A stretch of DNA of 64,000 nt from an uncultured bacterium (lineage in GTDB: Bacteria > Auribacterota > Erginobacteria > Erginobacterales > CAZKCI01): positions 36,022 through 100,021 of the forward strand of contig CAZOYW010000006.1 in assembly GCA_964584165.1 (NCBI GenBank), given 5' to 3'. Made by a program: the position numbers and the translations under genes. The notes below the pieces were generated by a model. It was not told the DNA's origin and searched no databases. It saw only the letters and a program-made list of their open reading frames with translations. This document shows, in pieces, positions 15,189-55,586 of the stretch (its first letter is position 1; each line of letters begins with the position of its first letter).

Positions 15189-15224
15189 CGGGGATAGGGG
15201 ATGGGGGCTAGAGGTTAGGTTTTT

Positions 15225-15248
15225 GGGTTCAGGGTTCAGGGTTCAGGG
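15225..15248. repeat. Tandem heptamer (GGGTTCA)x3 spanning the stop codon of the YfhO gene
   Basis: gggttcagggttcagggttcagggg read directly; it encodes the C-terminal ...LNPEP* on the - strand. Confidence 0.5.
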
Positions 15249-17517: not shown

Positions 17518-17612
17518 GGTCTGCGATCGGTCACGGCGGTTTTTAACCGCGAATTGACGCGAATCTCCGCGAATATATCGGACAACCGATCACTTCTTCT
17601 ATTTGCCGGTTG

Positions 17613-17682
17613 CCTGTGGGAGCGACATTCTTGTCGCGAGCCACGCCCTATGGGATCGGGGCAGGAATGCCCCTCCCACAGG
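17613..17682. repeat. REP-like palindromic intergenic element (CCTGTGGGAGCGACATTCTTGTCGCGAG...GGGGCAGGAATGCCCCTCCCACAGG)
   Basis: 70-bp imperfect palindrome with terminal inverted repeats CCTGTGGGAG/CTCCCACAGG; a second copy lies at 48599-48710. Confidence 0.6.
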
Positions 17683-17714
17683 CTCGCTGAGCTGGGGCAC
17701 ACGCGATCGACCGG

Positions 17715-25381: not shown

Positions 25382-25388
25382 GCGAGCC

Positions 25389-25910
25389 TCACTCCCCCGC
25401 CGTACGGTCCCGCTCCGAGAGGATGGGACGCCGCACAGGCCAGTGGATCCCGAAGGCCGGGTCGTCCCAGCGGAAGGTCGCCTGGGCGGCGCGGTCGTAG
25501 TAGCCGGACTGCTTGTAGTGGAAGATGGCCTTGTCGCTCAGGACAAGATGGGCCACGCCGTGGCCGGGCGGGACGAGGACCTGGAGGTGGTTGGCGTCGG
25601 AGAGGGTGAAGGCCTCCCAGAGGCCGAAGTCCGAGCGGGACCGGTCGCAGACGGCCACCACCAGGTAGAACTTCCCGTAGAGGCAGTCGACCAGCTTCCA
25701 GATCCGGGGGTCGGCGTGGATCCCGCGGAGCACGCGGCGGGAGGAGACGGAGATGTCGTCCTGGACGAAACGCGCCGCGACGCCGGCCCGGCGGTAGAGC
25801 TCTTCGTTGTAGGTCTCGACGTAGACCCCCCGGTGGTCCCGGAAGACCGTCGGGGGAACGATCACCTTCACCCCCGGCAGCTCCGTCGGCTTCACGAGTA
25901 GCTCCGCCAT
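25389..25910 (-). CDS. rmlC: dTDP-4-dehydrorhamnose 3,5-epimerase-like cupin (RmlC family)
   Basis: FVQDDISVS, LRGIHAD, KLVDCLYGKFYLVVAV, VPPGHGVAHLVLSDKAIFHYKQSGYY match RmlC motifs. Start at the internal ATG, which has an AGGAGGA RBS; the ORF's first Met (25967) adds 19 aa. Confidence 0.75.
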   Translation of the reverse strand: MAELLVKPTELPGVKVIVPPTVFRDHRGVYVETYNEELYRRAGVAARFVQDDISVSSRRVLRGIHADPRIWKLVDCLYGKFYLVVAVCDRSRSDFGLWEAFTLSDANHLQVLVPPGHGVAHLVLSDKAIFHYKQSGYYDRAAQATFRWDDPAFGIHWPVRRPILSERDRTAGE

Positions 25911-26128
25911 GTCATCCTCCTGCCCGCCCCGGTCCGGGCGGAGCTCGGTTAAGGGCCGCTCAGCCACGGGTCAGCCGCTGGAAAGCCCGAACGGACGGGT
26001 TGGGGCGGACGGGGCAATAGATCGCCACCAGGATGCGCCGGCGGAGGGCAACGAATACCCGCCGGCATTCGGAGTCGATCATGCTTGAGGCTTCTTCCGC
26101 CCCCCCGCGCTCCCGCGCCGCCCGACGA

Positions 26129-27067
26129 TCAGCCCGCCGCCGCGTAGTCCAGGACGGTAGAAACGATCTTCTTCCGGTCCAGGCCGTAGAGGGACTGGAG
26201 GTTGGACCGGCCACCGTACTTGTAGCAGTAGCCCCGGGACATGTCCAAGCCGATCCGGAGGACGGGGAACCCCTTCCCCCCCTCGGCCAGGGCCTCGAGG
26301 ACGGCGCTGCCGAAGCCGCCCGGGAGGGTGTGCTCCTCCAGGGTGACCGCCCGCGGGCAGCCGGCGAGGGCCCGGCGAAGGGCGCCGGGATCGAGGGGGA
26401 GGGCGAAGGCGTCGATCACCCGCGCTGAGATCCCCTTCTTCTCCAGGTCCTCCGCCGCCTCCAGGGCCCGGTGGACCATGTTGCCGGTGGCGACCAGGGC
26501 GATCCCCTTCCCTTCTCGGAGCACGGCCAGTCCGGAGGAGTAGTCGGCGTCCTCCCGGTAGAGCGCGGGGAGGCGCTGGCGGTCGAGGCGAACGTAGTGG
26601 GGGTGCTTCATCTCCCGGGAGAGACCGGCGAAGGCGGCAGCCATCACGCTGTCAGTCATCGTGTAGACCCGCAGGTGGGGGAGGATCCGCATGACCGAGA
26701 TGTCCTCGATCGTGTGGTGGGTGGGGCCGGAGTCGTCGTAGCTCAGCCCCGCCCCCACCCCGACCACCGTCACGGGGAGGTTCATCCCGGCCAGGTAGAT
26801 CTTGATCTGCTCGAAGCAGCGGTAGGTGATGAAGGGGGCGATGGCGTAGGCGTAGACCTTCTTCCCCTCCAGGGCCAGTCCGGCGGCGACCAGGATCGTG
26901 TTCTGCTCCGCGATCCCGACGTTGACGAACTGGGCGGGGAGCTTCCGGCGGAACTGGTCGAGGGCCGGGGCGGCCATGTCGGCGGAGACGATCATCACGT
27001 TTTCGTCGGCCGCGGCCTGCTCGAAGACCCGGTTCCAGAAGGCGTCTCTCTGGGTCGGCGGTTTCAT
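26129..27067 (-). CDS. Transketolase C-terminal subunit (split transketolase, Pyr + C-terminal domains)
   Basis: FVNVGIAEQNTILVAAGLALEGKKVYAYAIAPFITYRCFEQI; GPTHHTIEDISVMRILPHLRVY. Confidence 0.85.
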   Translation of the reverse strand: MKPPTQRDAFWNRVFEQAAADENVMIVSADMAAPALDQFRRKLPAQFVNVGIAEQNTILVAAGLALEGKKVYAYAIAPFITYRCFEQIKIYLAGMNLPVTVVGVGAGLSYDDSGPTHHTIEDISVMRILPHLRVYTMTDSVMAAAFAGLSREMKHPHYVRLDRQRLPALYREDADYSSGLAVLREGKGIALVATGNMVHRALEAAEDLEKKGISARVIDAFALPLDPGALRRALAGCPRAVTLEEHTLPGGFGSAVLEALAEGGKGFPVLRIGLDMSRGYCYKYGGRSNLQSLYGLDRKKIVSTVLDYAAAG

Positions 27068-27898
27068 CTAGGGCTTCCCCTGACCGAGCTCTTCCCGGAC
27101 CCGGGCCGCCTCCGCCACGGTGGGGGCTCGGGAATGCCACATGGGATCATCGCAGATGAAAGGCGCCCCCTTCCCCTTCACGGTGTCGGCGATGACGACC
27201 AGGGGGAAGGCGGAGCGGCGGGAGCGGACGCCTTTCAGGGCGCAGAAGATCTCATCGAAGCTATGGCCGTCGATCCGCTTCACGTTCCACCCGAAGGAGC
27301 GCCACTTGTCGGCGAGGGGCTCGAGGGCGACGATGTTCTCGGTGAACTCGGTGGCGCAGAGAAAGTTGCGGTCCACGATCGCCACCAGGTTGTTCAGCTG
27401 GTAATGGCTGGCGAACATGGCCGTCTCCCAGACCGATCCCTCGTAGCACTCCCCGTCTCCGAGGAGGGCGAAGACCAGGTGGAGCTCGCGGTTCCGCTTG
27501 GCCGCCAGGGCCATCCCGGCGGCGATCCCGAAGCCGTTTCCCAGCGACCCCGAGGTGATCTCGGTGCCGGGGACGTCGTGCTGGAGGTGGACGCCGATCT
27601 TCCCGTCGCACTGGATGAAGCGCTTGAGGTCGTCCTTGGAGAAAAACCCCAGGTCGGCCAGGACGGGGTAGAGGATGACGCTGGCCTGGCCCTTGGAGAG
27701 GATGAAGCGGTCGCGCTCCTTCCAGTGCGGGTTGCCGGGGTCGCAGCGGATGATCCCCCCGTGGAAGAGGGCGACCAGGATCTCGGTGCAGGAGAAGGCG
27801 GAGGTGACGTGGCCGGTCCCGGCCGGCGTGCACATGTCCAGAATCAGGTGGCGGATATACTTCGCCTTGGCTTCCAGGTCGTTGATGGAATTTTTCAC
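27068..27898 (-). CDS. Transketolase N-terminal subunit (TPP-binding)
   Basis: ALLGDGECYEGSVWETAMFASHYQLNNLVAIVDRN; GTG start with a GAGGAG RBS; abuts the C-terminal subunit gene. Confidence 0.85.
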   Translation of the reverse strand: MKNSINDLEAKAKYIRHLILDMCTPAGTGHVTSAFSCTEILVALFHGGIIRCDPGNPHWKERDRFILSKGQASVILYPVLADLGFFSKDDLKRFIQCDGKIGVHLQHDVPGTEITSGSLGNGFGIAAGMALAAKRNRELHLVFALLGDGECYEGSVWETAMFASHYQLNNLVAIVDRNFLCATEFTENIVALEPLADKWRSFGWNVKRIDGHSFDEIFCALKGVRSRRSAFPLVVIADTVKGKGAPFICDDPMWHSRAPTVAEAARVREELGQGKP

Positions 27899-27947
27899 GG
27901 TTACTCCTCGGTCGCCGGTCGTCCCCCCCTCGCGGCGGAGTGAAGGT

Positions 27948-29447
27948 TCAGGCCGGGCGCTCGAGCAGGCGGCGAGGGAGGGAGATTCCCAGCATCTCCA
28001 GTATATGCTGCCGGACCCGAATTCCAAACTTTTTTTCCACGGCGTCGAGGTAACCCTCGTCCTGGAAGTAGCGCCGGAAGGCCTCTTCCCGGAAGCGCAG
28101 GACCTCGGCGGCGGAGAGATGGCGCGTGGGGAGGGGCTGGGCGTCGTAACCGTGCTGGGAGAATCCCTCCCAGCCGGGGGGGAGATGGCCGGGCTCCAGG
28201 CGGGCGCGCTCATAGAGGGGCGAGCCGGGGTAGGCCCGGAGGGTGTAGAAGTTGACGAACTCGCATTTCAGATCCAGGGCCAGGGCCAGGGTCTCCTCCA
28301 GCGTTGCCCGGTCGTCCTCGGGAAGCCCGAAGAGGAAGTTGCCCAGGACCGAGATGCCGCGGTCCTGGATCGCCCGGACCGCCCGGCGGATGTCTCCGGA
28401 GATCGTCTTGTGGACGTCCCGGCGCACGCGGTCGCTGGCGGTCTCGATCCCCAGGCAGATCCAGGTCACCCCGGCCCGCCGCAGGAGGTCGAGGAGGCGG
28501 TCCGGCACGGTGTCCGCCCGCCCGTAGACCCAGAGGTTGAGATCATATCCTCGCTCGATCACCCCGTCGCAGAAACGCTCGACCCGCTCCGGGTCAAGGA
28601 TGAAGAGCTCGTCGTCGAGGCGGATGTTCCTCACCCCGTGCCGCTGGACCAAGCGGTCGATCCAGGAGAGAACCCGGGGGAGCGACCAGTAGCGGACCCC
28701 GCGGCGGCCGGCGAGCGCGTTGATACAGCAGTAGTCGCAGGCGAAGGGGCAGCCGAGCGAGGTGTAGAGGACCGCGTAGGGCGACCGGACGTCCGAGAAG
28801 TCATCCTTCCGGGACCGGGAGAAGTCCTGGAAACAGTGCATGTTGTGAGCCCGATAGCGGCCGAGCTCGGGGAGAAGGTCCCAGGCGTAGTCCGGCAGGA
28901 GGCGGTCGAGGTCCTCGGCCGCCGGAGCCGGGGGGGTCGCTGAGGCGGCGGAACCGGATCGGTACCAGAGTCCGGGGACGCGGGAGAGGTCCCGGGTCCC
29001 GCGCAAGTATTCCACCAGGGCCGGGATGGTGTAAACACCCTCCCCCGCGATGACGTAATCGGCCGCTTCCTCCCGGAGCGTCCGCTCGGGCAGGACCGTG
29101 GGGTGGAGGCCGCCCATCGCCACCGGCAGGTCGGGCGCGCTTTCCTTGAGCGAGCGGGCGATAGCCCCCGCCGCCGGCATGGTCTGGGTCGAGGCGGAGG
29201 GGTGATGGCCGTAGACCATGATCACCGCCAGGCGGGGGCGGTGCTGTTCGAGGAGGGCGGCGGCGGTCTCCTCTCCCCATCCCTCCAGGTTGGCGTCGTA
29301 GACGGCGGGGGCGAAGCCCTTCTCCCGGACGGCCTGGGCGAGGAGGGCGATCCAGACCGGGGGGGCGATCGCGGTCAGCCCGCGGGAGAGGCCCTGGTAG
29401 ATTTTTCGCTGGCCGCCCGGATGGATGAAGAGGACGTCCGCCTTCAT
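27948..29447 (-). CDS. B12-binding (class B) radical SAM enzyme
   Basis: MKADVLFIHPGG...; SLGCPFACDYCCINA. An alternative TTG start at 29471 would overlap the upstream gene by 20 nt. Confidence 0.85.
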   Translation of the reverse strand: MKADVLFIHPGGQRKIYQGLSRGLTAIAPPVWIALLAQAVREKGFAPAVYDANLEGWGEETAAALLEQHRPRLAVIMVYGHHPSASTQTMPAAGAIARSLKESAPDLPVAMGGLHPTVLPERTLREEAADYVIAGEGVYTIPALVEYLRGTRDLSRVPGLWYRSGSAASATPPAPAAEDLDRLLPDYAWDLLPELGRYRAHNMHCFQDFSRSRKDDFSDVRSPYAVLYTSLGCPFACDYCCINALAGRRGVRYWSLPRVLSWIDRLVQRHGVRNIRLDDELFILDPERVERFCDGVIERGYDLNLWVYGRADTVPDRLLDLLRRAGVTWICLGIETASDRVRRDVHKTISGDIRRAVRAIQDRGISVLGNFLFGLPEDDRATLEETLALALDLKCEFVNFYTLRAYPGSPLYERARLEPGHLPPGWEGFSQHGYDAQPLPTRHLSAAEVLRFREEAFRRYFQDEGYLDAVEKKFGIRVRQHILEMLGISLPRRLLERPA

Positions 29448-29451
29448 GGGC

Positions 29452-30438
29452 TCAGGGCCGCGGACGGTCAAGATTGCGAGTGCTGTCGACGATCACCCGC
29501 GGCCGACCGCGGCTCTGCCGGAAGACGCGTCCCAGATACACCCCGACCACTCCTATCGCCAGAAGCTCCAGGCCGGTCGAGAGGGCACCCCCCAGTCCCA
29601 GCCAGCAGACCGCTCCGGGCGGCGCGCCCGCCAGAACGGCGGCGGCGGCGACCAGGACCGCCAGGATGGCCGCGGCGGACAGGGCCAGACCCACGAGGAG
29701 GATCAGCATCAGGGGCATGATCGAATAGGAGGTCAGGCCGCTGACCAGCGTGCCGAGCGGCCCGTGCAGGGTCGAGAGGTCGCGCAGGAAATTGCGGAAG
29801 ATCGGGAAATGGCTCTCGCCGACGGCGCGCGGCTGGCGGTGGTAGGAAACCGGCACCTGCTTGAAGCCGATCCAGGGGATCATCCCGCGGGGATAGGGGT
29901 CGACCTCGGGCAGAGAGAGAAGGTGGGCAAGGACCCGGCGGGAGATCAGCTTGAAATCCCCCGCCTCCACGGCCAGATCGACGTCGGGGGTAAGCGAGTG
30001 AATCAGTCGGTAGGCGAACCGGGTCAGCCGGAGCCGGATGCGGCTCTCGGCCTGGCGGGAGGCCCGGACCGTATAGACGACCTCCGCCCCTTCCTTCCAG
30101 CGCGCGACCAGTTCGGGGATCAGCTCCGGGGGGTCCTGCAGGTCGGCGTCCATGGTGACCACCGCCTGACCGGCGGCGTATTCCATGCCCGCCAGGATGC
30201 ATTCCGCCTGCCCGAAACGGCGGGAGGTGGTGATGATCTTGATCCGGTTGTCCCGGTCGGCATAGGAATCCAGGAGCCGGCGGGATCCGTCGGAGGACGC
30301 GTCGTCGACAAAGATCAGCTCGAAGCCCTCGGCCATTCCGGCCAGGGCCTTCTCCAGGCGATCGATGAGGAGAGGCAGGAGTTCCTTCTCGTTGCGAAAG
30401 GTGAGGACGACGGAGAGAAGGGGGCGGGCAGCGGTCAT
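29452..30438 (-). CDS. GtrB/ArnC-like polyprenyl-phosphate glycosyltransferase (GT2 with two C-terminal TM helices)
   Basis: LSVVLTFRNEKELLPLLIDRL...FVDDASSDGS...TMDADLQDPPELIPELV; two C-terminal TM helices. Confidence 0.85.
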   Translation of the reverse strand: MTAARPLLSVVLTFRNEKELLPLLIDRLEKALAGMAEGFELIFVDDASSDGSRRLLDSYADRDNRIKIITTSRRFGQAECILAGMEYAAGQAVVTMDADLQDPPELIPELVARWKEGAEVVYTVRASRQAESRIRLRLTRFAYRLIHSLTPDVDLAVEAGDFKLISRRVLAHLLSLPEVDPYPRGMIPWIGFKQVPVSYHRQPRAVGESHFPIFRNFLRDLSTLHGPLGTLVSGLTSYSIMPLMLILLVGLALSAAAILAVLVAAAAVLAGAPPGAVCWLGLGGALSTGLELLAIGVVGVYLGRVFRQSRGRPRVIVDSTRNLDRPRP

Positions 30439-30467
30439 GGAGTCTCCCCAATCAGGGCCAAGCTTGT

Positions 30468-32951
30468 TTATCTTACGACAGGTCGCGACTCCGGCGCCAG
30501 ATCATTCGGCCGGCGGCGGGCGGCGGCGAGAGCGGAGAGGATCTCCCGCCGGTTGGAACCGGCCAAGGCCGCCCAACGGTCGACGGTCAGGCCCTCGGAA
30601 TCCCAAGCCGCGGGGTCCGCCCCCGCGGCCAGGAGAAGGGAGAGGATCTCGGCGCGGCCGTAACTCGCCGCGAACATCGCCGGGGTGCGGCCGCGGAGGT
30701 CGGGGACGTCCGGGCCGGCTCCCGCAGCCAGGAGAGCTCTCACGACTCCGATATCGCCGCTCTTCACGGCCAGGATCAGCGGCGGCTCGCCCGGGACCGC
30801 AAAACCCCTCTCGGCGACGTCCGCGCCGGAGGCGATGAGGGCGGCGACCCGTTCGGGACGTTTGAGGTAGACCGCCGAAGCGAGCTCACCCGGACCCGAG
30901 GCCAAGGCGACCGGGGAGGCGAGTCGGCGCAGATACCAGTCCTTGCCCAGATGGACGTCCCCCTCGCCGCGCTGGAGGATCCCTTCGAAGTCGTCGGCCC
31001 AGAGGAGGTACTCCGCCCGAGGCGGGATCGGCTGGAGACCCCGCCAGAAGGAGTTGAGCGGGATGACGGTCCGGGTCAGGCCGCGTCCGAAGAGCGGATA
31101 CTCGTAGGAGTGCCAGTTCAGGCAGGCCGCCACCACGGCGTCGGGGGGGACGAGCTCCTCGAACTTGCGGATCGCGCCCTCGAAGACCGGGCCGTCGCGG
31201 AGGAGCTGACCGAGACGGTCGCGGGCGAAGACGGAATCGGTCCGCGACGGGAGCTGGATCTCCTCCCGCCAGGCGGAGCTGAGGCAGGAGCGGAGCCAGA
31301 CCGCCTGGTCGAAGAGGATCGGCGAGCGCAGCTGGAAGAGGAGGCCGAGGACCGCCGAAACCGCCCCCAGACCGGCGGCGCCGGAGAGGGCGATCCATCC
31401 CAGGGGACGGGAGGGCGGGAAGAGAAAACCCGAGAGAGGGACGGCGAAGACCGTGGCGTAGAGGGTATAGTGCCCCCAGCTCGCCCCGCTGAAGGCGTGG
31501 ACGGCGACGCAGACGACGGCCGAAGCGGCCAGGACGCGGGAAGCGGGCGGGCGGCGGCGGGAGACAAGTCCGAGCAAGACCCCGGGCCAGACCAGGCCGA
31601 AGCCGAGGACCCCCCAGAGGGAGTAGTCGGGATGGCTGACCGGGGGCTTACCCCAGTGCCAGGGCTTGTCGTAGTACCAGTTGTCCGCGGGGTCGGACTC
31701 AAGCTCCAGACCGGCGGCGCGGATAGCGGCGGCGGGGAGGAAATGAAGCGCCTTCTGGGCGGAGACCACCGCCGGGACGGGAGGGAGCCCGTCCAGGGCC
31801 AGGAAGTCGAGGGCCATGGCGAAGAGATGCTTCGTCCCGTTGCGGAGGACCGCCGCGCCCCCCTTCCCCTCCACCAGGTTGATCTCCCGGAAATACCTGT
31901 CCCCCACGGGATGGCCGAAGATCCTCCAGTTTTCGGCGTAGCCGGCGGGGAGGGCGAAGAGGACGAGCGCCGCCGTCGTGGCCGCGGCGAGGCGGGCGGC
32001 GTCGCGGCAGCGCGCGCGGAGCGGGGTCGGGCGGGCGAAGAGGGCGAAGGCCGCGACCAGAAGGAGCGAGGGAGCGGCGAGGAGGACCGAGACCTTGGCC
32101 CCGGCCGCCAGGGCGAAAGCCGCCCCCGCCGTCCAGAGCCAGGCGGCGCGGGAGGTCTCGCGAAAGGCGAGAAGCGAATAGACGGCGGCGCCGAGGAGGG
32201 CGGCGAGGAAAAGGTCGCTGTTCGCGGTGTACGACTGGAGGACGACCTGGGGGAGAAGGGCGAAGACCAGCCCGGCGAAGAGGGCGGCGGGGCGGGCGCA
32301 GCCGAGACGGCGGGTGATCCCGTAGACCAGCGCCAGGCCGACGAGGTAGGAGGCTAACTGGGGAAGGCCGGTCAGGTTTTCGTTGCGGCCGAAGGCCAGG
32401 AAGACCCAGAGCAGGATCAGCTCGTACCCCTTCTGGGCCAGAACCTGGGTGTACATGTTGGCGTCGTAATAGCCGCAATGACCCTGCTGGATCCAGTAGG
32501 CGATCCGGGGGAGGCGCGTGACCATGTTGTCCCAGACGTGGGGGGCGGCGAAGAAGACGAGAGAGAGGGAAAGGAGGGCGGCGGCGAGGACGGCCGCGAG
32601 CATGGCACCGAGCAGGGCCCTCGGGAAGGGAGGGGTCTCCCGCCACCCCGACCACCGGCGCTGACCGAAGGCAGCTCTCCGGAACCACACCCGGCGGCGG
32701 AGGGGGGCGAAGGAGAGCGTCCCGGCCAGGAGCAGGAGGAGGGCCGCGGCCGAGGAGATCGCCCAGGCCCCAAGGCTCCCGAGAAGACCGGCGCGGGAGA
32801 GAAGATAGCCGAGCGACGGGAGAAGGGCGGCGGCGGGGAGGAAGAATGCGATGACCCGGGCGGGCAGCCCCCGGCCGCGGGCCGCCCGGGAGGCCAGGTG
32901 GCAGAAGAGGAGCACCGAGACCAGCGAAACCAATCCGAGCGTTGGCGGCAT
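30468..32951 (-). CDS. GT-C-like polytopic membrane glycosyltransferase (ArnT/PMT-like) fused to a C-terminal ankyrin-repeat domain (~827 aa)
   Basis: Multiple TM helices; C-terminal tandem ankyrin repeats (GEPPLILAVKSGDIGVVRALLAAGAGPDVPDLRGRTPAMFAASYGRAEILSLLLAAGADP). Internal ATG 32951 with an AAGGAGGG RBS was chosen over the ORF's first Met. Confidence 0.7.
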   Translation of the reverse strand: MPPTLGLVSLVSVLLFCHLASRAARGRGLPARVIAFFLPAAALLPSLGYLLSRAGLLGSLGAWAISSAAALLLLLAGTLSFAPLRRRVWFRRAAFGQRRWSGWRETPPFPRALLGAMLAAVLAAALLSLSLVFFAAPHVWDNMVTRLPRIAYWIQQGHCGYYDANMYTQVLAQKGYELILLWVFLAFGRNENLTGLPQLASYLVGLALVYGITRRLGCARPAALFAGLVFALLPQVVLQSYTANSDLFLAALLGAAVYSLLAFRETSRAAWLWTAGAAFALAAGAKVSVLLAAPSLLLVAAFALFARPTPLRARCRDAARLAAATTAALVLFALPAGYAENWRIFGHPVGDRYFREINLVEGKGGAAVLRNGTKHLFAMALDFLALDGLPPVPAVVSAQKALHFLPAAAIRAAGLELESDPADNWYYDKPWHWGKPPVSHPDYSLWGVLGFGLVWPGVLLGLVSRRRPPASRVLAASAVVCVAVHAFSGASWGHYTLYATVFAVPLSGFLFPPSRPLGWIALSGAAGLGAVSAVLGLLFQLRSPILFDQAVWLRSCLSSAWREEIQLPSRTDSVFARDRLGQLLRDGPVFEGAIRKFEELVPPDAVVAACLNWHSYEYPLFGRGLTRTVIPLNSFWRGLQPIPPRAEYLLWADDFEGILQRGEGDVHLGKDWYLRRLASPVALASGPGELASAVYLKRPERVAALIASGADVAERGFAVPGEPPLILAVKSGDIGVVRALLAAGAGPDVPDLRGRTPAMFAASYGRAEILSLLLAAGADPAAWDSEGLTVDRWAALAGSNRREILSALAAARRRPNDLAPESRPVVR

Positions 32952-33001: not shown

Positions 33002-35230
33002 TTATAGCCCTTTTCGCGGATCGCCGCAGCTGCCGGGAGCGGCCGTGAAGTGGCGGGGGCTCATCACGGCGAAGATCTCCCGCACCTCTCCCCCCCGACC
33101 CGGAAAAGCGATCCATCCCCGCCGGTACTCCCGCCGGAAGACGTCGCGGACCCAGAGCGTGTCGCCGAACTGCATGGCCCAGGGGCGGCTGTCGTCCCCC
33201 GGGCGGTCGGGCCAATCATCGCGGGGGACCTCTTCGCGCCCCCCCTCGCCCGCGAGCTCGACGCGGGCGGCGGCCGCGGCGGACGGACTCCCGCAGACGA
33301 CATAGATATCGCTGCAGAGAAGAGGGTCGAATCGGAAGGAGACCGCCTCGGCGCTCCCCGGACCGAGACGGGCGGAGGTTTCGAGCGACCCGTCGAAGGG
33401 TTCGGCGGGCGAGCCGCCCGCCGGCGCCAGGGCCCCGGAAGCGCGCGGCATCTCCACGAAGAGGTGGCCGGCGAAACCGCGCTCCTCCTGGAACCGGCTC
33501 AGCTCGCGGTAGGCGACCCGGGCGGTCGAGCCGGACCAGTTGAGAAAGGTGAGGGGGAACTGGCGGCGGGCGGCCGCGAAGTTCCCTAGTTTGCGGAAGG
33601 TGATGGAGCGGCCGTGAGCGAGGCCGGACTCGTCCCAGAGGTCGAAGACGACGGTCCGCCAGCGGGAGCGGTAGAACCCCTCCCTCTCCCGCTCGGCGAT
33701 CCAGCGCTTCCCCGACTCGCCGACGGCCGCGATGACGAGCAGGCTGTAGACGGCGAAGGCGGCGGCCGCCGCCGCGGGCAGCCGGCCCGGCGGCGGAAAA
33801 CGGCGGAACCGACGGCCGGCGAGAGCGGCGGCCGCCAGGCAAGCGACGGACGCGGCGGCGACGGCCGCCGCCGCGGGGGCGCCGGCGAACTTCGGATGGA
33901 AGAGAAGATAGGCCCCATCCCGGGCCAGAAGGGGGAGGCGACGGAGAAGCTCGGCGGGGGGGATGAAGGCGCGGGGGGCTTCGTTGGCGAGTACCCGCTC
34001 GCCCCACTGAAAGAAGGGGGCGGAGCCCTTGAAAATCTCGCTGCACTCGCCGAGGTAGCGGGAGAGCGGACCGAGCAAGTTGACTCCCATCCCGGCGATG
34101 AAGACCCCCATCCCGATCGGCATGGGGAGGCGGGAGATGGCGAGCGAGAGGCCGAGAACGGAGAAGGGGAGAAGCAGCATCGGGAAGCGCCCCCCCGCCC
34201 AGCACTGGTTCTCCCAGCCCCGATAGAGGGCCATCTCGAGGAACGAGCCGAGGAGCATGAACCCTCCCCCCAGCGCCACGCCGGGGGATCTCCGGATGAG
34301 CAGGACGGAGAGAAGCACGCCGGTGATGAAAACCGGGCTTTCCAGGAGGCGGGGGGAGAGATGGCGCACGACCTGGAGGATCTCACCCCAGCTCTGGCCG
34401 GTGGACCCGAAGGTGTAGGTCAGGTTCCAGGCCCCGACGTAGTAATGCTGGTAGAGGATGGCGGGGGCGACGCCCAGGGCGAAGCCGGCGATCACCATGA
34501 GAAGGCGAAATGGGGCCCCCCGGCCCTTTTCCCGAAGGGCGAGAATGATCCAGGAAGCGGCCGGTATGCCCAGCGAAACGATCGCCTGGAGGCGAAAGAA
34601 CGCGGCGAGTCCGGAGAAGAGGCCGAGGGCGAACCAAACCCCCGCGCCGCGGGACCCGCCGCGGTCGACCGCCGCCGCCTCGCGGACGAGGAGCGCGAGC
34701 GCGAGCATCAGCGGCCCGTCGGCCCAGCTGTGGTGGACGACCAGGAGCAGGAAGAAGTAGGAGGAGGCGACCGCGAGGGCCGTCCCGGCGAGGGCGGGGA
34801 GTGCGCCGGCCAGGCGGCGGGCGGTCCGGAAGAGAACGGCCAGGGCGAGGAGGGCGGCGAGGAGTCCGGGAAGGTTGAAGGCCGCCCGGTACAGGGGGGT
34901 TCCGGGGCCGAAGGCGGGCGCCGGCAAGCCGAGCGCGCCGCCGGCGGAGAGGGCGAGACGGAAAAGGGCGTAGGCGGGGAGAGCGAGGAGGGAGCGCCCG
35001 ATGGTGTGGTGGAGAGAGAGGTAGCCGGCCGGCGTCATGTAGTTCCCGATCCAGTCGGAGAACTCGGGGACCTCCCAGACCCGAAAGCCGCTCCCGCCGT
35101 CGATCGACTCGGCGATCATCCGGTAGGTGATGTCGGCGTAGCCGACGAAGGGGTTGGACCAGAGGAAGACGGCGGCGGCGAGCGCCGCCCAGGCGAGACC
35201 GGAAGCCATATGTCGCCTGAAACCAATCAT
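33002..35230 (-). CDS. GT-C-like polytopic membrane protein, paralog family A (C-terminal ...REIFAVMSPRH)
   Basis: N-terminal TM helices plus a large C-terminal domain. It shares a C-terminal motif with the genes at 45386-47623 and 53439-55586. Start ATG 35230 with an AGGAAAGAG RBS. Confidence 0.65.
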   Translation of the reverse strand: MIGFRRHMASGLAWAALAAAVFLWSNPFVGYADITYRMIAESIDGGSGFRVWEVPEFSDWIGNYMTPAGYLSLHHTIGRSLLALPAYALFRLALSAGGALGLPAPAFGPGTPLYRAAFNLPGLLAALLALAVLFRTARRLAGALPALAGTALAVASSYFFLLLVVHHSWADGPLMLALALLVREAAAVDRGGSRGAGVWFALGLFSGLAAFFRLQAIVSLGIPAASWIILALREKGRGAPFRLLMVIAGFALGVAPAILYQHYYVGAWNLTYTFGSTGQSWGEILQVVRHLSPRLLESPVFITGVLLSVLLIRRSPGVALGGGFMLLGSFLEMALYRGWENQCWAGGRFPMLLLPFSVLGLSLAISRLPMPIGMGVFIAGMGVNLLGPLSRYLGECSEIFKGSAPFFQWGERVLANEAPRAFIPPAELLRRLPLLARDGAYLLFHPKFAGAPAAAAVAAASVACLAAAALAGRRFRRFPPPGRLPAAAAAAFAVYSLLVIAAVGESGKRWIAEREREGFYRSRWRTVVFDLWDESGLAHGRSITFRKLGNFAAARRQFPLTFLNWSGSTARVAYRELSRFQEERGFAGHLFVEMPRASGALAPAGGSPAEPFDGSLETSARLGPGSAEAVSFRFDPLLCSDIYVVCGSPSAAAAARVELAGEGGREEVPRDDWPDRPGDDSRPWAMQFGDTLWVRDVFRREYRRGWIAFPGRGGEVREIFAVMSPRHFTAAPGSCGDPRKGL

Positions 35231-35326: not shown

Positions 35327-35971
35327 TCAAAGTGAGGGCGAAGAGCCGCGGGAGACTCGGCCGACCCCTAGCAGCGTCATCGCGTAGACGTAGTGGACCC
35401 GGACATCCCGCAGGGACGCCCTTTCCATCAGATCCTGGAGCTCGGAGGGGCTGAAGGGGAACTCCTCGGCGAAGAGCCACTGGGAGCCGAGGCACTTCTC
35501 GTAGAGGTTGAGGAGGCCCACCCGGGCCGGGACCACCGCTCCCACCCACCCCCCCTCCTTCGTCACCCGTCTTTTCTCCCGGAGAAGCTCGACCGCCCGC
35601 TCCCGGGAGTAGTGCTCGATCAGCCCGATGCTGTAGACCAGGTCAAACCCCCCCCGGAAGGAGAGGTTCAAGGCATCGCCCATGAAGAACGAGGAGCCCC
35701 GCTCCGTCTCGCGCGCGATCTCGATCGCCACCCGGGAGGAGTCGATCCCGAAACCGGAGAGATCGGGGCGCTGGGCTTTGAGGCAGTGAAGCGTGGCCGC
35801 GGTGCCGCAACCCGCCTCCAGGACACGGGGGCGGACGGAGGACGGAAGAAGCGGGCGGAGGATCCGGGCGTAGGAGCGGGCGAAGACCGGCCGGAGGCGG
35901 CGGATCAGGAACATCGTCAGGTTGAAGGAGTCCGCCTCCTTCGACCAGTACTCGTCGTTGTATTCCCGGGC
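35327..35971 (-). CDS. Class I SAM-dependent methyltransferase
   Basis: VLEAGCGTA motif I, DLVYSIGLIEH. An alternative TTG start at 36034 would add 21 aa. Confidence 0.75.
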   Translation of the reverse strand, partial: AREYNDEYWSKEADSFNLTMFLIRRLRPVFARSYARILRPLLPSSVRPRVLEAGCGTAATLHCLKAQRPDLSGFGIDSSRVAIEIARETERGSSFFMGDALNLSFRGGFDLVYSIGLIEHYSRERAVELLREKRRVTKEGGWVGAVVPARVGLLNLYEKCLGSQWLFAEEFPFSPSELQDLMERASLRDVRVHYVYAMTLLGVGRVSRGSSPSL

Positions 35972-36034
35972 CATAACGCAAGGCGGGCCGACGCCCGCCC
36001 GGACATTATGCCACAACCACAACCGCTCCACCAA

Positions 36035-51210: not shown

Positions 51211-53442
51211 TCAATAAAGCGCCAGCTCCGCCAGCGTCGAGAAACGGAACGGCGTCTCCCCGGTCCCGTGCCCGGAGTAGATGACGAGCTTATAATAGCG
51301 GAAAGGCCCCCGCTCGGGCAAATCCCAGAAACGCCACTCCCCGCCCGAGATCGGTTCGCCCTGGACGATCGGGGCGATCTCCTCCCAGTCCTGGCCGTCC
51401 CGGCTCCCCTGGAGGAGGGCGCAGTTGAGGAAACCCTCCGGGCATTCCCGGCACGACTGGGCGGCCAGGACCCGCGCCGCCGCCGGCCGGCCGGGGCCCA
51501 AATCCGCCAGCACCCAGTCCGGGGGCCCGGGCGGATGCGGGGACAGACGCCAGCAGGTCTCCGGGCGGCCATCCGCCAGGACGGCCGCGTCGAACTCGGC
51601 AGCGCGGCGGGAGGATCCGGAGATGGCCGCCCCGGCCAGGAGGTTCTTGCGCCGGGGGAGGACGATGCTCCGCCCCTCCCCCGGCGGCGGGGGCGACGGC
51701 GGAAAAGCCGTCTCCGGGAACGCGCGCAGTATTTCCGTGATGTCCATCGTCCAGGCCGTCCCGGCGCGGCGGAAATCCGCCCCCACCTCCGTTGGGCACC
51801 GGCTCCGGAGCTCCTCCAGAACCGCTTCGAGCCGAGCCGGTGACCGGGCCAGGACGACGGCCCGGAAGGGAGCGTCCCGCCGGGCCAGCCGCCAGAGGGA
51901 GAGGGCGTCCGTCACCAGCATCCCCCGGTTCGGAAAGGTCAAGACCGGCGCGTCGGCGTAGTACTCGATCTCCGGCGAGATCTGGGGGACGTTGGGAGCG
52001 TGCTCGCGGTCCGCGTAGCTCCGGAAGAAACCGTAATCGAAGTACACCGTCTCCTCCCGGCGTTCCCGGAGGAGGGCGCGGGCGGCGCGGAGGTCATCCT
52101 CGGCGATGGGGAGGGAGGCGGCGGAGGCGACCTGGAGGCTCGTCAGCAGGTTGACCGTGACCAGGACGACGGCGGCGGCGAAGACCGCGAGTGAGGCGGC
52201 CAGGGACACGGCCCGCCGGAGAAAGGAGCCTCCGCCGGCGCCGGGGGGGGCGGTCATTCCCCGCGCGGCGCCGACGAGGGCAGCGGCCACGAGGAGGGAA
52301 CGGAAGGGGCCGATCTGCCGGGTCTGGTAGGCCATCGCCCCGGAGACGGGGACGAGAAGGGGGAAGAGGAGGCCGCCGGCGAGGAGGAGGAGGAGGACGG
52401 GCAGGCCGGCCGGGGAGAGAAGGCGGCGGCGCCAGGACCAGATAGCGCCGGCCGCAGAGGCCGCCCAGGCGGCCCCGAGGAGAACGGGGGGGAGAAGATA
52501 GCGGGGGACGTTGCGGACGTAGATCGCCTGCTCGTCGAAAACGAAGCGGAGCGTGCTCGGGATCAGGCGGAACTGGGAAGTCCCGGCCCGGGAGCGGCTG
52601 AGGAAGGTCTCCCGGACGTCGAGCCAGGCGTCGGCCCAGCCGAGGTACCAGGCGTTCTGGCAGAACTGCAGGCCGTAGGCGAGAAGGGGGGCGGCCGCCA
52701 TCAAGGCCCAGCGGCGCCAGCGCCGCCGGCCCGCGATGAGGTCGAAGCCGACGATCCAGAAGAAGGAGAAGAGGACGGCGTCGAAGCCGTGGGCGGCCAC
52801 GGCGAAGAGCAGAAGCCAGGTGAGAAGGGCGCGGCGGCGGGACGGCCTCTCCCGCTCCCAGACCGTCGCCGCCATCACGGCGAAGCGGAGGAGGTCGTCC
52901 CCGGGCATCTGGGCGAGACTTAAGGCGTAGCGGAGGAAGCCGCGGCTCGTGAGGTAGTAGAGACAGGCGAGGAGGGCGACCGTCCCGCCGCAGAGGCGCC
53001 GGAGGGCGAAGAAGAACAGGGCCACGGAGCTTAAGGAGAGGAGGAGCGCGTACTTGGAGAGGAGAGGATAGGTGGCGAGCCCCAGCTTCCAGAGGAGGGC
53101 GGGAAGGACCAGGTAGCCGCTGGGGTAGTGGGTGTAGTAGAGGCGGGGGCCGACCAGGGGAGAGACCGCCCAGTCCGTCCCGTGGGCGAGATGGCGGAGA
53201 GGGGGCTCGTCGAGGAACCGGACGGCCCGCGCGTAGCCGTGGGCGATGAAGAGGAACCGGTGGCGGAGGAAGCCGTCCCGCCCCCAGAACCGGCAGGTGA
53301 GGAGCGTCTGGGCGTCGCCGAAGGACCAGTCGCTCCAGCCGGCGTCGCGGGCGGACTCCACCGCGAGGTAGCCACCGGACGCGAGCAGGGCGGCGACGAG
53401 AAGGATCCAGGCCAGGCGGTCGCCGGATGCGGTGCCTTTCAT
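51211..53442 (-). CDS. Polytopic membrane protein with a C-terminal discoidin/F5-8-type-C-like domain (743 aa)
   Basis: TM-rich N-terminal 450 aa; C-terminal ...WRLSPHPPGPPDWVLADLGPG...YYKLVIYSGHGTGETPFRFSTLAELALY, which I judge (tentatively) to resemble a carbohydrate-binding module. ATG 53442 forms an ATGA overlap with the upstream stop. Confidence 0.55.
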   Translation of the reverse strand: MKGTASGDRLAWILLVAALLASGGYLAVESARDAGWSDWSFGDAQTLLTCRFWGRDGFLRHRFLFIAHGYARAVRFLDEPPLRHLAHGTDWAVSPLVGPRLYYTHYPSGYLVLPALLWKLGLATYPLLSKYALLLSLSSVALFFFALRRLCGGTVALLACLYYLTSRGFLRYALSLAQMPGDDLLRFAVMAATVWERERPSRRRALLTWLLLFAVAAHGFDAVLFSFFWIVGFDLIAGRRRWRRWALMAAAPLLAYGLQFCQNAWYLGWADAWLDVRETFLSRSRAGTSQFRLIPSTLRFVFDEQAIYVRNVPRYLLPPVLLGAAWAASAAGAIWSWRRRLLSPAGLPVLLLLLAGGLLFPLLVPVSGAMAYQTRQIGPFRSLLVAAALVGAARGMTAPPGAGGGSFLRRAVSLAASLAVFAAAVVLVTVNLLTSLQVASAASLPIAEDDLRAARALLRERREETVYFDYGFFRSYADREHAPNVPQISPEIEYYADAPVLTFPNRGMLVTDALSLWRLARRDAPFRAVVLARSPARLEAVLEELRSRCPTEVGADFRRAGTAWTMDITEILRAFPETAFPPSPPPPGEGRSIVLPRRKNLLAGAAISGSSRRAAEFDAAVLADGRPETCWRLSPHPPGPPDWVLADLGPGRPAAARVLAAQSCRECPEGFLNCALLQGSRDGQDWEEIAPIVQGEPISGGEWRFWDLPERGPFRYYKLVIYSGHGTGETPFRFSTLAELALY

Positions 53443-55586
53443 CTCGCGGACCGGCCGTGACGGGGGGACATGATCGCGAAGACCTCCCGGGGGGACGTCC
53501 CGGCGGATGGGGGGAGGCCGAGAATCCGGACCGAGTTCCAAGGACGCTCATAGAAGTCCCAGACCCAGAGCGCGTCCTCCCACCGCTCCATCCGCAGGGG
53601 CGCCTCCCAGGAGATCCCGTCCGACGAGACCTCGACCACGGGCGTCTCCGCGAGGGCGGTCGGGAAGACCACGATCAGGTCGCTGAAGGGCCCCCCGGAG
53701 CGGTCGAGGAGGATTTCGAGTCCGCCCCCGCTCCTCTCCCGCGCCCCCTTGACCGCACCCGGGACTCCGTAGCGGGAGCGAAGCTCCTCCCAGAGGCGCG
53801 GCCCGAGGACGGGATGGCGCCGGAGCTGGAGGAGGAGGTCCGGGACCTCCCCCTCCGGGATCGGCTTGACCGCGGCGGCGGCCAGCCCCATCCGGAGCGC
53901 TTCCTCATCCTGGCCGTCCCTCAGGTAGAGGCGGGCGCGCATCTGCAGGTCGTCGACGCAGTTGGACCAGTCGAAGGGGAGCGTCCGCCAGCAGCCGGCG
54001 TAGCGCCCCGCGCGCTCCCAGCGTTCGACCGCGGCGGCGGTCCGGCGGAGAGCGGCGGCGACCGCGGCCAGATTGGCGGCGGCCAGGGCGGCGAGGGCAA
54101 ACGCCGCCAGGCGGAAGCGGGCGGGGCGGGAGAGGCGGCGGCGGAGCGCCGCGACCGCGGCGGCGAGGGGCACCCCGGGGAAGAGGACAAGGAGACTCCA
54201 CCAGTAGTCCGAACGGGGGACCTGGAGAAGGGGAGAAAGGAGAGCGCCGGCGCGGGGGAGCACCCGGAGGGCGGCGCGGACCGCCGCGATCGGGTTCTCC
54301 GGCGAAGCGATCTCCCGGGCGGCGGACGGGAGAAGCGGGGCCGTCCGGTACCACCAGGGGAGATACCAGAGAGAAAGCTTGACGAAGGTGACGTAGGCGA
54401 GGAAGAGCGCGGCCGCCGCCCACGCCGCGCCCGCCCAGCGCCGGCGGAAGAGAAAGGTCAGCCCCAGCACGAAAGCCGGCGCCAGGGAAAGGCTGTAGCG
54501 GGAGCTGAGATAGAGCTGCGCCTCGATATGGCCCCGCCGGAAGAGGCTGATGGCGAAGGCCAGCGCGATCACCCCCCAGAGCGGAAGAACGACCGGGCGA
54601 AAGCGGCGGGGCGCGAGAAACAAACCGGCGAGGCCGAGCAGCGGGACGATGCTCAGGGTCAGGAAATCGGGCTGGCGGAGGAGAAGACGAGCGACCTGGG
54701 AGAGCGACTCCCGGGCCACCGCCGCCCCGTAGAGGTCCGGGTTCCAGGACCCGAACCAAGCCCGGAAGACGAGGGCCTGGGGCAGAACCGCCAGGGCGAA
54801 GCCGGCCGCTCCCTGGATCCACGCCGCCAGGAGGGAGAGGCCCCGGAGCCGCCCCGACCTCCACCAGCCGATCCCGGCCGTGGCCAGGAAAATCCCCCAG
54901 AAGGCCGACTGGATCCGGACCAGGGCGGCCATCCCCAGGAGGAGGCCGAGGAGGAGACCCCAGAAGCGGGGAAAGGAGGGCGAGAAATGGAGGGAGAGGA
55001 CGAGGTGGAGGAGGAGACCGATCAGGAGAAGCGCGATCAGCTCCGATCCCCCCTGTTTGAAGAAGAGGAGCCACCACCACTCGGTGCTGAAGAGGACCGC
55101 CGCCAGCGCCATGAGCGCCGGCGCGCAACCGGAGCCGAGACGGCGGCAGAGGCGGTAGAGGACGAGGAGGGCGGCGAACCCGCAGAAGACCGCGGTGGCG
55201 TTGTACCAGAAGAGGCGGAAGCGGTCGACCGGCCCGGAGGCGGGGGAGGCGGACCAGTCTCCTTCGACCGGAAGGCGCGCCAGTCTCGCCGCCGCCCGGC
55301 CGGCGAAGAGGAAGGGGCAGGAGAGGAGGGCGCTCCCCACCGTGTGCGGGACGGCGAGATGGCCGGTGACGGTCAGGTGCCGCTCGGTTTGGGGGATCTT
55401 GGCCTCCTGGTCGTAAAGGAAGAGGTCGCCGTCCCGGCAGAGGCTGGCGGCCATCAGGAAATAGGAGGAATCGACGAAGACGGCCTTTCCCCTCGTCCAG
55501 AGGGCGGTCGCCAGAAGAAGGGCCGCGCCGCCGAGCGCTACTCGGCGGACAAGGCGGCCGGACGGGATCGGTGCTTCCGCAGCCAT
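53439..55586 (-). CDS. GT-C-like polytopic membrane protein, paralog family A (C-terminal ...REVFAIMSPRHGRSAR)
   Basis: VFVDSSYFLMAASLCRDGDLFLYDQEAKIPQTERHLTVTGHLAVP. Start ATG 55586 lies 43 nt after the rSAM stop, with a GAGAGG RBS. The upstream 500 aa of the 1217-aa ORF is an alternate frame of the rSAM gene. Confidence 0.7.
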   Translation of the reverse strand: MAAEAPIPSGRLVRRVALGGAALLLATALWTRGKAVFVDSSYFLMAASLCRDGDLFLYDQEAKIPQTERHLTVTGHLAVPHTVGSALLSCPFLFAGRAAARLARLPVEGDWSASPASGPVDRFRLFWYNATAVFCGFAALLVLYRLCRRLGSGCAPALMALAAVLFSTEWWWLLFFKQGGSELIALLLIGLLLHLVLSLHFSPSFPRFWGLLLGLLLGMAALVRIQSAFWGIFLATAGIGWWRSGRLRGLSLLAAWIQGAAGFALAVLPQALVFRAWFGSWNPDLYGAAVARESLSQVARLLLRQPDFLTLSIVPLLGLAGLFLAPRRFRPVVLPLWGVIALAFAISLFRRGHIEAQLYLSSRYSLSLAPAFVLGLTFLFRRRWAGAAWAAAALFLAYVTFVKLSLWYLPWWYRTAPLLPSAAREIASPENPIAAVRAALRVLPRAGALLSPLLQVPRSDYWWSLLVLFPGVPLAAAVAALRRRLSRPARFRLAAFALAALAAANLAAVAAALRRTAAAVERWERAGRYAGCWRTLPFDWSNCVDDLQMRARLYLRDGQDEEALRMGLAAAAVKPIPEGEVPDLLLQLRRHPVLGPRLWEELRSRYGVPGAVKGARERSGGGLEILLDRSGGPFSDLIVVFPTALAETPVVEVSSDGISWEAPLRMERWEDALWVWDFYERPWNSVRILGLPPSAGTSPREVFAIMSPRHGRSAR

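Follow-up and report, generated by a model that had tools for sequence, protein, structure and literature searches.

A GT-C-type membrane enzyme joined to ankyrin repeats in an envelope-glycan island of an uncultured bacterium

What role could a set of ankyrin repeats serve at the end of a membrane-embedded glycosyltransferase? This question is raised by a gene at positions 30468-32951 (minus strand) of a 64-kb stretch of DNA from an uncultured bacterium, which we call the window and which was analysed over its whole length of 64,000 nucleotides. An earlier note on this DNA described the gene product as an ArnT/PMT_2-type enzyme of the GT-C class followed by three to four canonical ankyrin (Ank) repeats, and proposed that the repeats argue for a protein acceptor. 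We find that a GT-C/PMT_2 membrane enzyme and four C-terminal ankyrin repeats are indeed present in one protein, hereafter GT-C::Ank, and that the coordinates given for it are right. Pfam, a search of PDB sequences and an AlphaFold2 (AF2) model agree with the architecture. As a whole, we consider it moderately probable that the enzyme faces outward, draws on a polyprenyl-phosphate donor and carries a captured, exported Ank partner with a docking role.

The fused gene and its two parts

The gene and its subregions are listed here, with residue numbers referring to the encoded protein and TM denoting transmembrane.

30468..32951, minus strand: whole gene, GT-C::Ank, 827 residues (open reading frame, Pfam PMT_2 and Ank matches, 13 contigs)
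32637..32951, minus strand: N-terminal extension, residues 1-105, with extra TM helices at 3-23, 29-53 and 60-80, conserved across the family (AF2, alignment)
31338..32630, minus strand: GT-C membrane core, residues 108-538, with 11 TM helices (AF2, Foldseek)
32529..32531, minus strand: codon of Asp141 ('HVWDN'), candidate catalytic acid at the start of the first predicted extracytoplasmic loop (alignments)
31962..32405, minus strand: PMT_2 (PF13231) match, residues 183-330 (Pfam)
31614..31943, minus strand: large predicted extracytoplasmic loop, residues 337-446, with invariant Y338, N341, G346, H347, P348, D387 and others (alignment, AF2)
30924..31307, minus strand: C-terminal α/β domain, residues 549-676, family-wide; most members stop here ('GKDWYLRKL') (alignment, Foldseek)
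30888..30923, minus strand: flexible linker, residues 677-688, the fusion junction; predicted local distance difference test (pLDDT) score below 50 at 679-685 (alignment, AF2)
30513..30887, minus strand: four ankyrin repeats, residues 689-813; the loop joining repeats 1 and 2 carries an insertion (Pfam, PDB search, AF2, Foldseek)
30606..30986, minus strand: variable cassette, residues ~656-782, covering the end of the α/β domain, the linker and Ank repeats 1-3 (comparison with locus L062)

The reading frame and its translation run through 827 codons without interruption to a TAA stop at 30468-30470. The ATG at 32951 is supported as the start because the N-terminus read from it (MPPTLGL...) matches residue for residue in all of the recovered orthologues (8/8), and because it sits 50 nucleotides past the stop of the upstream gene (33002). 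A longer version initiated at a TTG (to 33215) would run into that upstream gene, which ends at 33002.

A fusion of this kind might be a neutral accident or an artefact of assembly or gene calling. Its clade is very small, the linker is modelled with low confidence, and other island genes are also fused in the window lineage, which might reflect a tendency to lose intergenic stops. However, the identical 827-residue protein is found on 13 contigs from several independent samples, and a second common fused variant has an open frame on 6 contigs, again from independent samples. Other samples and separate assemblies yielded two further fused variants, which are 88% and 71% identical. Because the identical protein recurs on so many contigs and the two divergent variants occur elsewhere, the fusion is not an assembly artefact. 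In addition, lineages that are 71-100% identical retain the fusion and preserve the residues of the canonical ankyrin framework, the removal of the signal peptide and first repeats of the free form described below was clean, and both types of the variable cassette are kept in frame. Thus, an accidental or artefactual origin appears very improbable.

The tail of the protein matches Ank (PF00023) with an E value of 1.6e-11 and Ank_2 (PF12796) at residues 693-781 with 42.3 bits vs 27.3 (E 1e-10), and a total of five Ank Pfam families score above cut-off. No TPR family was reported by Pfam for the fused protein. When PDB sequences were searched, residues 690-818 matched DARPins and ankyrin-1 with E values down to 1e-39. 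The AF2 model forms four helix-turn-helix repeats at residues 689-707, 724-742, 757-775 and 790-813, and Foldseek aligns ~122 columns of this part to DARPins with an rmsd of 1.4-1.6 Å. The segment is not transmembrane. In the 88% identical lineage (P0002; L054:2525-5041), the gene has 11 extra codons ('...KSTSLALIGETP') and overlaps the start of the following GT2 gene by 4 nucleotides, whereas the TAA stop of the window gene leaves a 29-nucleotide spacer before GT2 (30438-30470).

The membrane part is recognized by PMT_2 at residues 183-330 (36.9 bits vs a gathering score of 26.1, E 5e-9) and by PMT (PF02366) in a partial match covering profile positions 97-230 of 245 (28.2 bits vs 22.7). No MIR family is present among the Pfam matches of the fused protein at E <= 0.1. 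The GT-C part has no sequence match in the PDB, as a family profile returned none at E <= 1 and the 60 best matches of the full-length query were all ankyrins or DARPins. A full-length AF2 model built from a 9-sequence alignment has a pLDDT of 80 and a predicted TM-score (pTM) of 0.76. Foldseek matches of this model were dominated by DARPins, and residues 1-677 were modelled alone for the structure search (14 sequences, pLDDT 88.5, pTM 0.92). Every match of the shorter model with an E value below 0.09 is a GT-C enzyme. ArnT (5f15/5ezm) ranks first, with an E value of 3e-6, 637 of 677 columns aligned and a TM-score of 0.56 on the ArnT length, followed by STT3/PglB, ALG3, Pmt4, PimE, ALG9, Pmt1/2, EmbA/B/C and AftD. 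Pmt1/2 align over 249-262 columns only, and Pmt4 is ranked 15th with 514 columns (E 2.5e-3), its other entry aligning over 258 columns.

These models show that the membrane part has the GT-C glycosyltransferase fold, and that ArnT is the closest solved fold. The 71% homologue is likewise labelled 'ArnT-like' by JGI. Residue Asp141 does not vary in either alignment (9 and 14 sequences, the most distant at 22% identity). In the AF2 model it lies 6 residues past the TM helix at 108-134, where it opens the first outer loop. Given this position and what is known for the family, Asp141 is a candidate catalytic residue.

Origin and variation of the ankyrin module

The combination of PMT_2 and Ank is rare. 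Among the 8000 word-sharing candidates that the database searches scored, which also set the scope for what we call the closest relatives, it is found in only three 90%-identity clusters of a collection of 5.8 billion proteins. These are P0001 (identical to the window protein), P0002 (88%) and P0003 (71%). A member of the P0001 cluster, P0043 (835 residues), is likewise fused. The literature searched on ankyrin with GT-C or PMT_2 contains no description of such a protein and so does not contradict the statement in the earlier note that ankyrin domains are not described on GT-C enzymes. The note overstates how uncommon they are in bacteria, as at least one is encoded by 51% of 1912 bacterial strains (PMC3932732). 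Exported examples such as Bd3460 are also known (PMC4686830).

Most relatives of the enzyme end where the ankyrin repeats would begin. The next relatives (P0004-P0009) are 36-59% identical, are 657-675 residues in length and end with '...GKDWYLRKL', which corresponds to residue 677. A family profile searched against 1.84 billion representatives recovered 7694 relatives, including 614 at E <= 1e-30. Nearly all of the best 150 representatives are 650-680 residues long and stop where the profile stops. The orthologues at 36-59% identity and nearly all of the best 150 representatives are without Ank but have the same core, including its invariant residues. In 47 GTDB genomes, the relatives show <= 40% identity and none matches past residue 688, and there is no ankyrin gene in 784 kb of flanks around 47 distant family loci. 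A metagenome scan with the pattern GADP.A.D yielded, among the matches listed, unrelated ankyrins of <= 56% identity and no new fused or free orthologues.

A few family members carry other additions at the same place. P0065 has two TPR repeats at residues 682-739, and P0197 has a 138-residue C-terminal addition of no assigned type. P0138 (residues 676-1070) and P0163 (residues 673-1063) have tails of ~390 residues composed of two tandem repeats of ~190 residues ('NLALKQNGG...LNDGT..WG...REILISE'). Accessory domains have thus been attached repeatedly at the C-terminus of the family, and Ank is a very recent addition that is restricted to one clade. For the tails of P0138 and P0163, we considered a discoidin-like, carbohydrate-binding identity, which was set aside when no Pfam match was found at E <= 1 and no BLAST similarity to the island protein with an F5/8-type-C (F5/8C) domain.

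A different membrane protein with an ankyrin tail was also encountered. This unrelated 986-residue polytopic protein from a metagenome (L065:1004-3964) has ~6 C-terminal ankyrin repeats, several TM helices and a region that by eye resembles spermidine synthase, and it does not look like a GT-C enzyme.

Free Ank proteins of 175-220 residues that carry a signal peptide are encoded in three related lineages, in the same type of glycan island. In a sister lineage (L052, L053, L060 and L061, including three NCBI assemblies), the GT-C enzyme is 53-60% identical and has no Ank, and a free Ank of 204-208 residues is encoded 6 kb downstream of the GT-C gene. This free gene is followed by genes for a B12-radical S-adenosylmethionine (SAM) protein, a GT2 (53% identical to window 29452-30438) and a second B12-radical SAM protein (63% identical to window 27948-29471). 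The order in the window is GT-C::Ank, GT2, radical SAM. Between GT-C and Ank, the sister lineage has four genes, of which the three largest correspond to a block located at 13707-18767 in the window (45-63% identity). For the free protein P0319 (locus L142) the order is Ank, B12-radical SAM, GT2, and for P0321 (loci L143 and L144) the remaining island genes show 54-73% identity to genes of the window.

The free Ank of the sister lineage is colinear with the fused domain, with 43% identity over 138 residues (E 3e-26). Fused and free Anks have in common an insertion, RG[FY]AV..[ED].PL[IL]LAVK.G, and a cap, D.EGL.V[DE].W.AL, both of which are non-canonical. When the fused domain was compared with 437 collected proteins, the three free Anks were the top non-fused BLAST matches (86, 81 and 79 bits; next 71). 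By best single-domain phmmer score the free Ank P0318 is the clear leader (76 vs 62), and the other two rank in the top five. A database query with the Ank domain only, made with the 8000-candidate word filter, did not return the free Ank of the island, which shows that this filter misses some relatives.

Each of the three free Anks starts with a sequence resembling a signal peptide, namely MSRLMTISTAAVALAAVCSAPL, for which the start overlaps the upstream stop (ATGA), MKLFLTLSLISSILIRGWA followed by D, and MRGLLISTLLSLLSSFLL, which is in frame and upstream of the called start. The signal peptide is followed by about five repeats. No counterpart of free-Ank residues 1-69, which comprise the signal peptide and first repeats, is present in the fused domain. 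The free form includes a complete signal peptide and one repeat more, and the vast majority of the GT-C family is without Ank. A fusion therefore explains the data more parsimoniously than a fission, and we infer that this was the direction. Given that Ank is fused to this GT-C enzyme here and occurs as a free protein in the same type of island elsewhere, the two stand in a Rosetta-stone relationship, which marks them as partners in one system.

Variation between closely related strains is concentrated in the linker and ankyrin repeats 1-3. Over 14.5 kb, locus L062 (GCA_016294955.1) shares 98.06% identity with the window, and ~99.7% outside the cassette. Nearly all of the 247 mismatches fall within nucleotides ~1921-2400 of the gene (~480 bp). 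When the two genes are compared in 60-nucleotide windows (L062:6001-8508), identity is 18-77% in the cassette and 97-100% in the flanks. At the protein level, P0001 and P0043 are 99.2% identical in the body (residues 1-655), 60.3% in the cassette (residues 656-782) and 97.8% in the tail (residues 783-827). The corresponding values are 75.0%, 82.2% and 75.8% for P0043 vs P0003, and 86.6%, 92.9% and 95.6% for P0001 vs P0002.

From these comparisons, two cassette types circulate across lineage boundaries by recombination, with the linker and repeats 1-3 as the exchanged piece. The exchange argues for a functional module, and for a surface that either changes together with a variable partner or is subject to diversifying selection, but it does not name the partner.

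Orientation and possible role

On which side of the membrane the ankyrin domain resides had been left open in the earlier note. The AF2 model begins with TM helices at residues 3-23, 29-53 and 60-80, followed by an Arg-rich loop (86-107), the TM helix at 108-134 and the outer loop with Asp141. It continues with six TM helices, the outer loop of 110 residues (337-446), four more TM helices (447-538) and the α/β domain (549-676). Ten TM helices, an even number, are therefore located between the Asp141 loop and the C-terminal domain. The short loops predicted to be cytoplasmic have 2-7 Lys or Arg residues each, with seven in loop 86-107, and the invariant K286 is the only Lys or Arg in the short outer loops. 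By the positive-inside rule and the even helix count, the C-terminal domain and Ank should lie outside the cytoplasm. The C-terminal domain of ArnT (5EZM/5F15) is periplasmic, and the α/β domain falls inside the 637-column alignment to ArnT, which again suggests an outward Ank. The signal-peptide-like starts of the free Ank orthologues point in the same direction. We infer from these three concordant, indirect lines that the α/β domain and the Ank module face outward.

Were Ank instead cytoplasmic, it might link the enzyme with the donor-making GT2 or with a regulator in the cytoplasm. Most characterised ankyrin proteins act in the cytoplasm, and poor export by the post-translational Sec route has been reported for DARPins (PMC9594773). 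Against this placement stand the ten TM helices that follow the outer Asp141 loop, the Lys/Arg bias of the short loops, the position of the α/β domain within the alignment to ArnT and the signal peptides of the free orthologues. Clear signal peptides are also present in 8/14 of the closest small ankyrin relatives. A cytoplasmic Ank is thus highly unlikely.

A possible source of the sugar donor is encoded by the gene immediately downstream of the fused gene.

29452..30438, minus strand: GT2, 328 residues, with two C-terminal TM helices (Pfam Glycos_transf_2, hydropathy peaks), 29 nucleotides downstream of the fused gene

This GT2 protein aligns end-to-end with the NCBIfam models for PgfS (190 bits) and ArnC (127 bits). 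The GT2 gene comes after the GT-C gene in three of the lineages examined, with and without Ank, and the pair is kept in the P0004 lineage, which is without Ank. The protein is best read as a predicted polyprenyl-phosphate sugar synthase that supplies a lipid-linked donor.

We propose that the GT-C enzyme acts at the outer face of the cytoplasmic membrane. On the cytoplasmic side, the adjacent GT2 would load a single sugar onto a polyprenyl-phosphate carrier, as might be expected from its family. The GT-C enzyme would then take that sugar from the carrier and pass it to an acceptor in the envelope. Its Ank domain would be a copy captured from a small ankyrin protein, itself exported, of the kind regularly encoded in such envelope-glycan islands. 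The two genes would have been joined in this lineage, with Ank losing its signal peptide and first repeats. The most probable role of Ank is protein-protein docking, by which it would keep another exported island component or, less likely, a protein acceptor near the active site. Candidate partners include a lectin-like F5/8C component, another island enzyme or a protein acceptor, and exchange of the repeat 1-3 cassette would change or track the partner. More speculatively, attachment to a membrane protein that is inserted co-translationally might secure the export of fast-folding repeats, given the poor post-translational export reported for DARPins (PMC9594773).

Several points weigh against this proposal. 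The Ank association is confined to a single clade and hence may be dispensable, and the three-cluster count and the identity of the closest relatives hold among the word-sharing candidates noted above. By phmmer, only one of the three free Anks clearly outranks unrelated ankyrins. The outward placement is built on predictions. The scores of GT2 are far below the equivalog cut-offs for PgfS (500 bits) and ArnC (529 bits). Finally, the 64-kb window contains no GtrA-like flippase and no open reading frame of 80-300 residues with >=3 hydrophobic helices.

A more specific form of the proposal holds that Ank is an exchangeable specificity adaptor, which docks an exported protein (the acceptor or the F5/8C component) onto the GT-C active site. 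We regard this form as distinctly unlikely. If true, a cassette swap would re-target the enzyme, and the system would be a modular and recombining bacterial counterpart of TPR-guided TMTC/TMEM260 enzymes.

The closest known system by fold is ArnT, the GT83 enzyme that transfers 4-amino-4-deoxy-L-arabinose to lipid A. It resembles the fused protein in having a polytopic GT-C core and an outer-face C-terminal α/β domain. ArnT also draws on a polyprenyl-phosphate monosaccharide, which is supplied by a neighbouring GT2 of the ArnC type, as is predicted here. However, sequence identity to ArnT is only 13-14%, no ArnT-specific family is reported for the fused protein by Pfam or NCBIfam, and the fused protein has three extra N-terminal TM helices. 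ArnT is without ankyrin repeats, and family scans of the large open reading frames of the island gave no match of the ArnA/B/D type.

The same features bear on whether the acceptor is a protein. If Ank recruits a protein acceptor, the enzyme would be a protein O-glycosyltransferase like PMT, Pgf or TMTC. Consistent with this idea, ankyrin repeats are protein-binding modules, PMT scores above its threshold (28.2 bits vs 22.7), and cassette variation could follow a variable acceptor protein. The TPR repeats of TMTC and TMEM260 enzymes are C-terminal and luminal. The best NCBIfam match of GT2 is PgfS, which functions in the glycosylation of streptococcal surface proteins (PMC5856776, PMC12041528). 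Moreover, the GT-C/PMT clan includes eukaryotic, protein-specific O-mannosyltransferases, TMTC1-4 and TMEM260, whose TPR repeats are thought to give acceptor or partner selectivity (PMC7801869, PMC10214176). These enzymes share the design of the fused protein, in which α-helical repeats come after a GT-C membrane domain and lie on the side away from the cytoplasm, and the bacterial family member P0065 has TPR repeats at the very same C-terminal position. They differ in that the window protein is bacterial and has ankyrin rather than TPR repeats, its repeat module is also a free exported protein in relatives, and there is no sign here of mannose or of a protein acceptor.

Several of these observations count against a protein acceptor. 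Nearly all family members are without Ank and yet have the catalytic core, and Ank is a separately encoded exported protein in related lineages. Pfam gave no MIR domain, the PMT match is partial (97-230 of 245), and Pmt1/2/4 mostly align over ~250 columns compared with 637 for ArnT. The gene is located in a glycan-building island, and the PgfS match is far under its 500-bit cut-off. The argument from Ank to a protein acceptor is not supported, because orthologues without Ank keep the core and because Ank is separately encoded in three lineages, which makes it a partner subunit but not necessarily one that holds the acceptor. The fold closest to the lipid A-modifying ArnT, the glycan island and the TPR repeats of P0065 also count against this argument. 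A protein acceptor nonetheless has a modest chance of being correct.

Other systems also pair a GT2 polyprenyl-phosphate sugar synthase with a GT-C enzyme acting outside the membrane, including GtrA/B/C, Citrobacter GT136 ORF12 and the three-component streptococcal system PgfS/PgfM1/PgfM2 (PMC5856776). The GT136 enzyme has a C-terminal carbohydrate-binding module that is described as involved in substrate binding (PMC11127046), whereas the accessory domain of the window protein is predicted to be of the protein-binding kind. Unlike the Gtr-type systems, the window has no GtrA-like or other small open reading frame with multiple TM helices that would be a flippase candidate. Also unlike these three-gene modules, the fused gene resides among ~14 polytopic paralogues and nine radical SAM genes.

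Exported ankyrins can also act as inhibitors. The ankyrin Bd3460 of Bdellovibrio bacteriovorus is a periplasmic self-protection protein that binds envelope and cell-wall enzymes (PMC4686830). It is a small bacterial ankyrin with a signal peptide, and the free Anks of the islands have the same layout. Thus, Ank might be an inhibitor or immunity-like cap that masks an exported hydrolase of the island, for example one of the sulfatase family, and the fusion would merely anchor it. In support of this idea, Bd3460 blocks DD-endopeptidases (PMC4686830), sulfatase-family proteins are present in every island version, and a fast-exchanging cassette is typical of an inhibitor-target pair. However, no conserved adjacency of Ank and hydrolase genes is seen in the three lineages. 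The constant downstream neighbours of Ank in two of the three (2/3) are radical SAM and GT2, and its upstream neighbour in L143 is the lectin-like F5/8C gene. Fusion to one GT-C enzyme is also stable across lineages that are 71-100% identical. Bd3460 itself is not fused to an enzyme, is not tied to glycosylation and acts as an inhibitor. An inhibitory cap therefore seems improbable.

The docking role that we favour would bear on how GT-C enzymes find their acceptors, a process that is poorly understood even though these enzymes decorate bacterial envelopes outside the membrane. Known accessory domains of GT-C enzymes are carbohydrate-binding modules or TPR repeats, and ankyrin adds another. 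The natural pair of fused and free forms singles out the enzyme to which Ank belongs from among the ~14 polytopic proteins of the island, and the two natural cassette alleles make the question of the partner directly testable. If the predicted topology is correct, free-living uncultured bacteria would here provide a case of ankyrin repeats that operate extracytoplasmically. For now, the case has limited practical impact.

The surrounding glycan island

Nearly the whole window (179-63217, mostly minus strand) is a single envelope-glycan island of ~60 kb, and its G+C content is about 69%. Gene counts are based on open reading frames picked from the list of such frames and on family scans. The island encodes ~14 polytopic proteins of 610-1220 residues, which fall into several paralogue groups and in some cases match YfhO or PMT_2, together with four GT2-type, nine radical SAM (B12-binding or SPASM) and three sulfatase-family genes. 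Several sulfatase-family proteins are present in every version of the island. A methyltransferase gene is located at 35327-36034, and a second is found near 40.6-41.4 kb according to public calls on the identical contig L001. The same calls add a dTDP-sugar isomerase. The island also encodes a split transketolase (N-terminal and pyrimidine-binding/C-terminal subunits) and an RGP-like (UDP-arabinopyranose-mutase-like) protein. The island features not listed above are as follows.

25382-26128: dTDP-sugar isomerase gene
26129-28213, minus strand: split transketolase genes
27948..29447, minus strand: B12-binding radical SAM protein, 499 residues as called on public contigs, conserved beside GT2
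33002..35209, minus strand: upstream polytopic paralogue, 735 residues as called, PMT_2 at 18.5 bits, below cut-off (Pfam; PMT_2 also weak in L054/L056)
48757-49920, minus strand: RGP-like gene
51211..53541, minus strand: second fusion, a 776-residue membrane protein with six hydropathy (TM) peaks (BLASTP, Pfam)

The transketolase pair adjoins the GT-C/GT2 pair in the P0004 lineage too, which hints at an unusual sugar donor.

The fused gene is not the only case of joined components in the window lineage. Residues 631-758 of the 776-residue protein encoded at 51211-53541 match a free F5/8-type-C lipoprotein of L143 (35% identity over 130 residues, 77 bits by BLASTP), and the Pfam family F5_F8_type_C is weak in the former and strong in the latter. 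The L143 lipoprotein gene (9438-10004, 188 residues) has a stop that overlaps the start of the free Ank gene, and its product carries the sequence '...LLVSAAGC', which we read as a lipobox. A 1151-residue protein (10188-13643, minus strand) consists of a 510-residue N-terminal part followed by TPR and sulfatase regions, and its first 510 residues match a 523-residue protein of L143. Similarly, an 851-residue protein (57129-59684, minus strand) has an N-terminal part of ~415 residues of no known type followed by a B12-radical SAM region. This C-terminal half is encoded by a separate gene of 463-489 residues in L143 (463 residues) and L060. From these comparisons, it appears that several small exported or soluble island components became C-terminal domains of larger ones in the window lineage. 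The F5/8C fusion parallels the Ank fusion, which raises the idea that the Ank and F5/8C modules interact.

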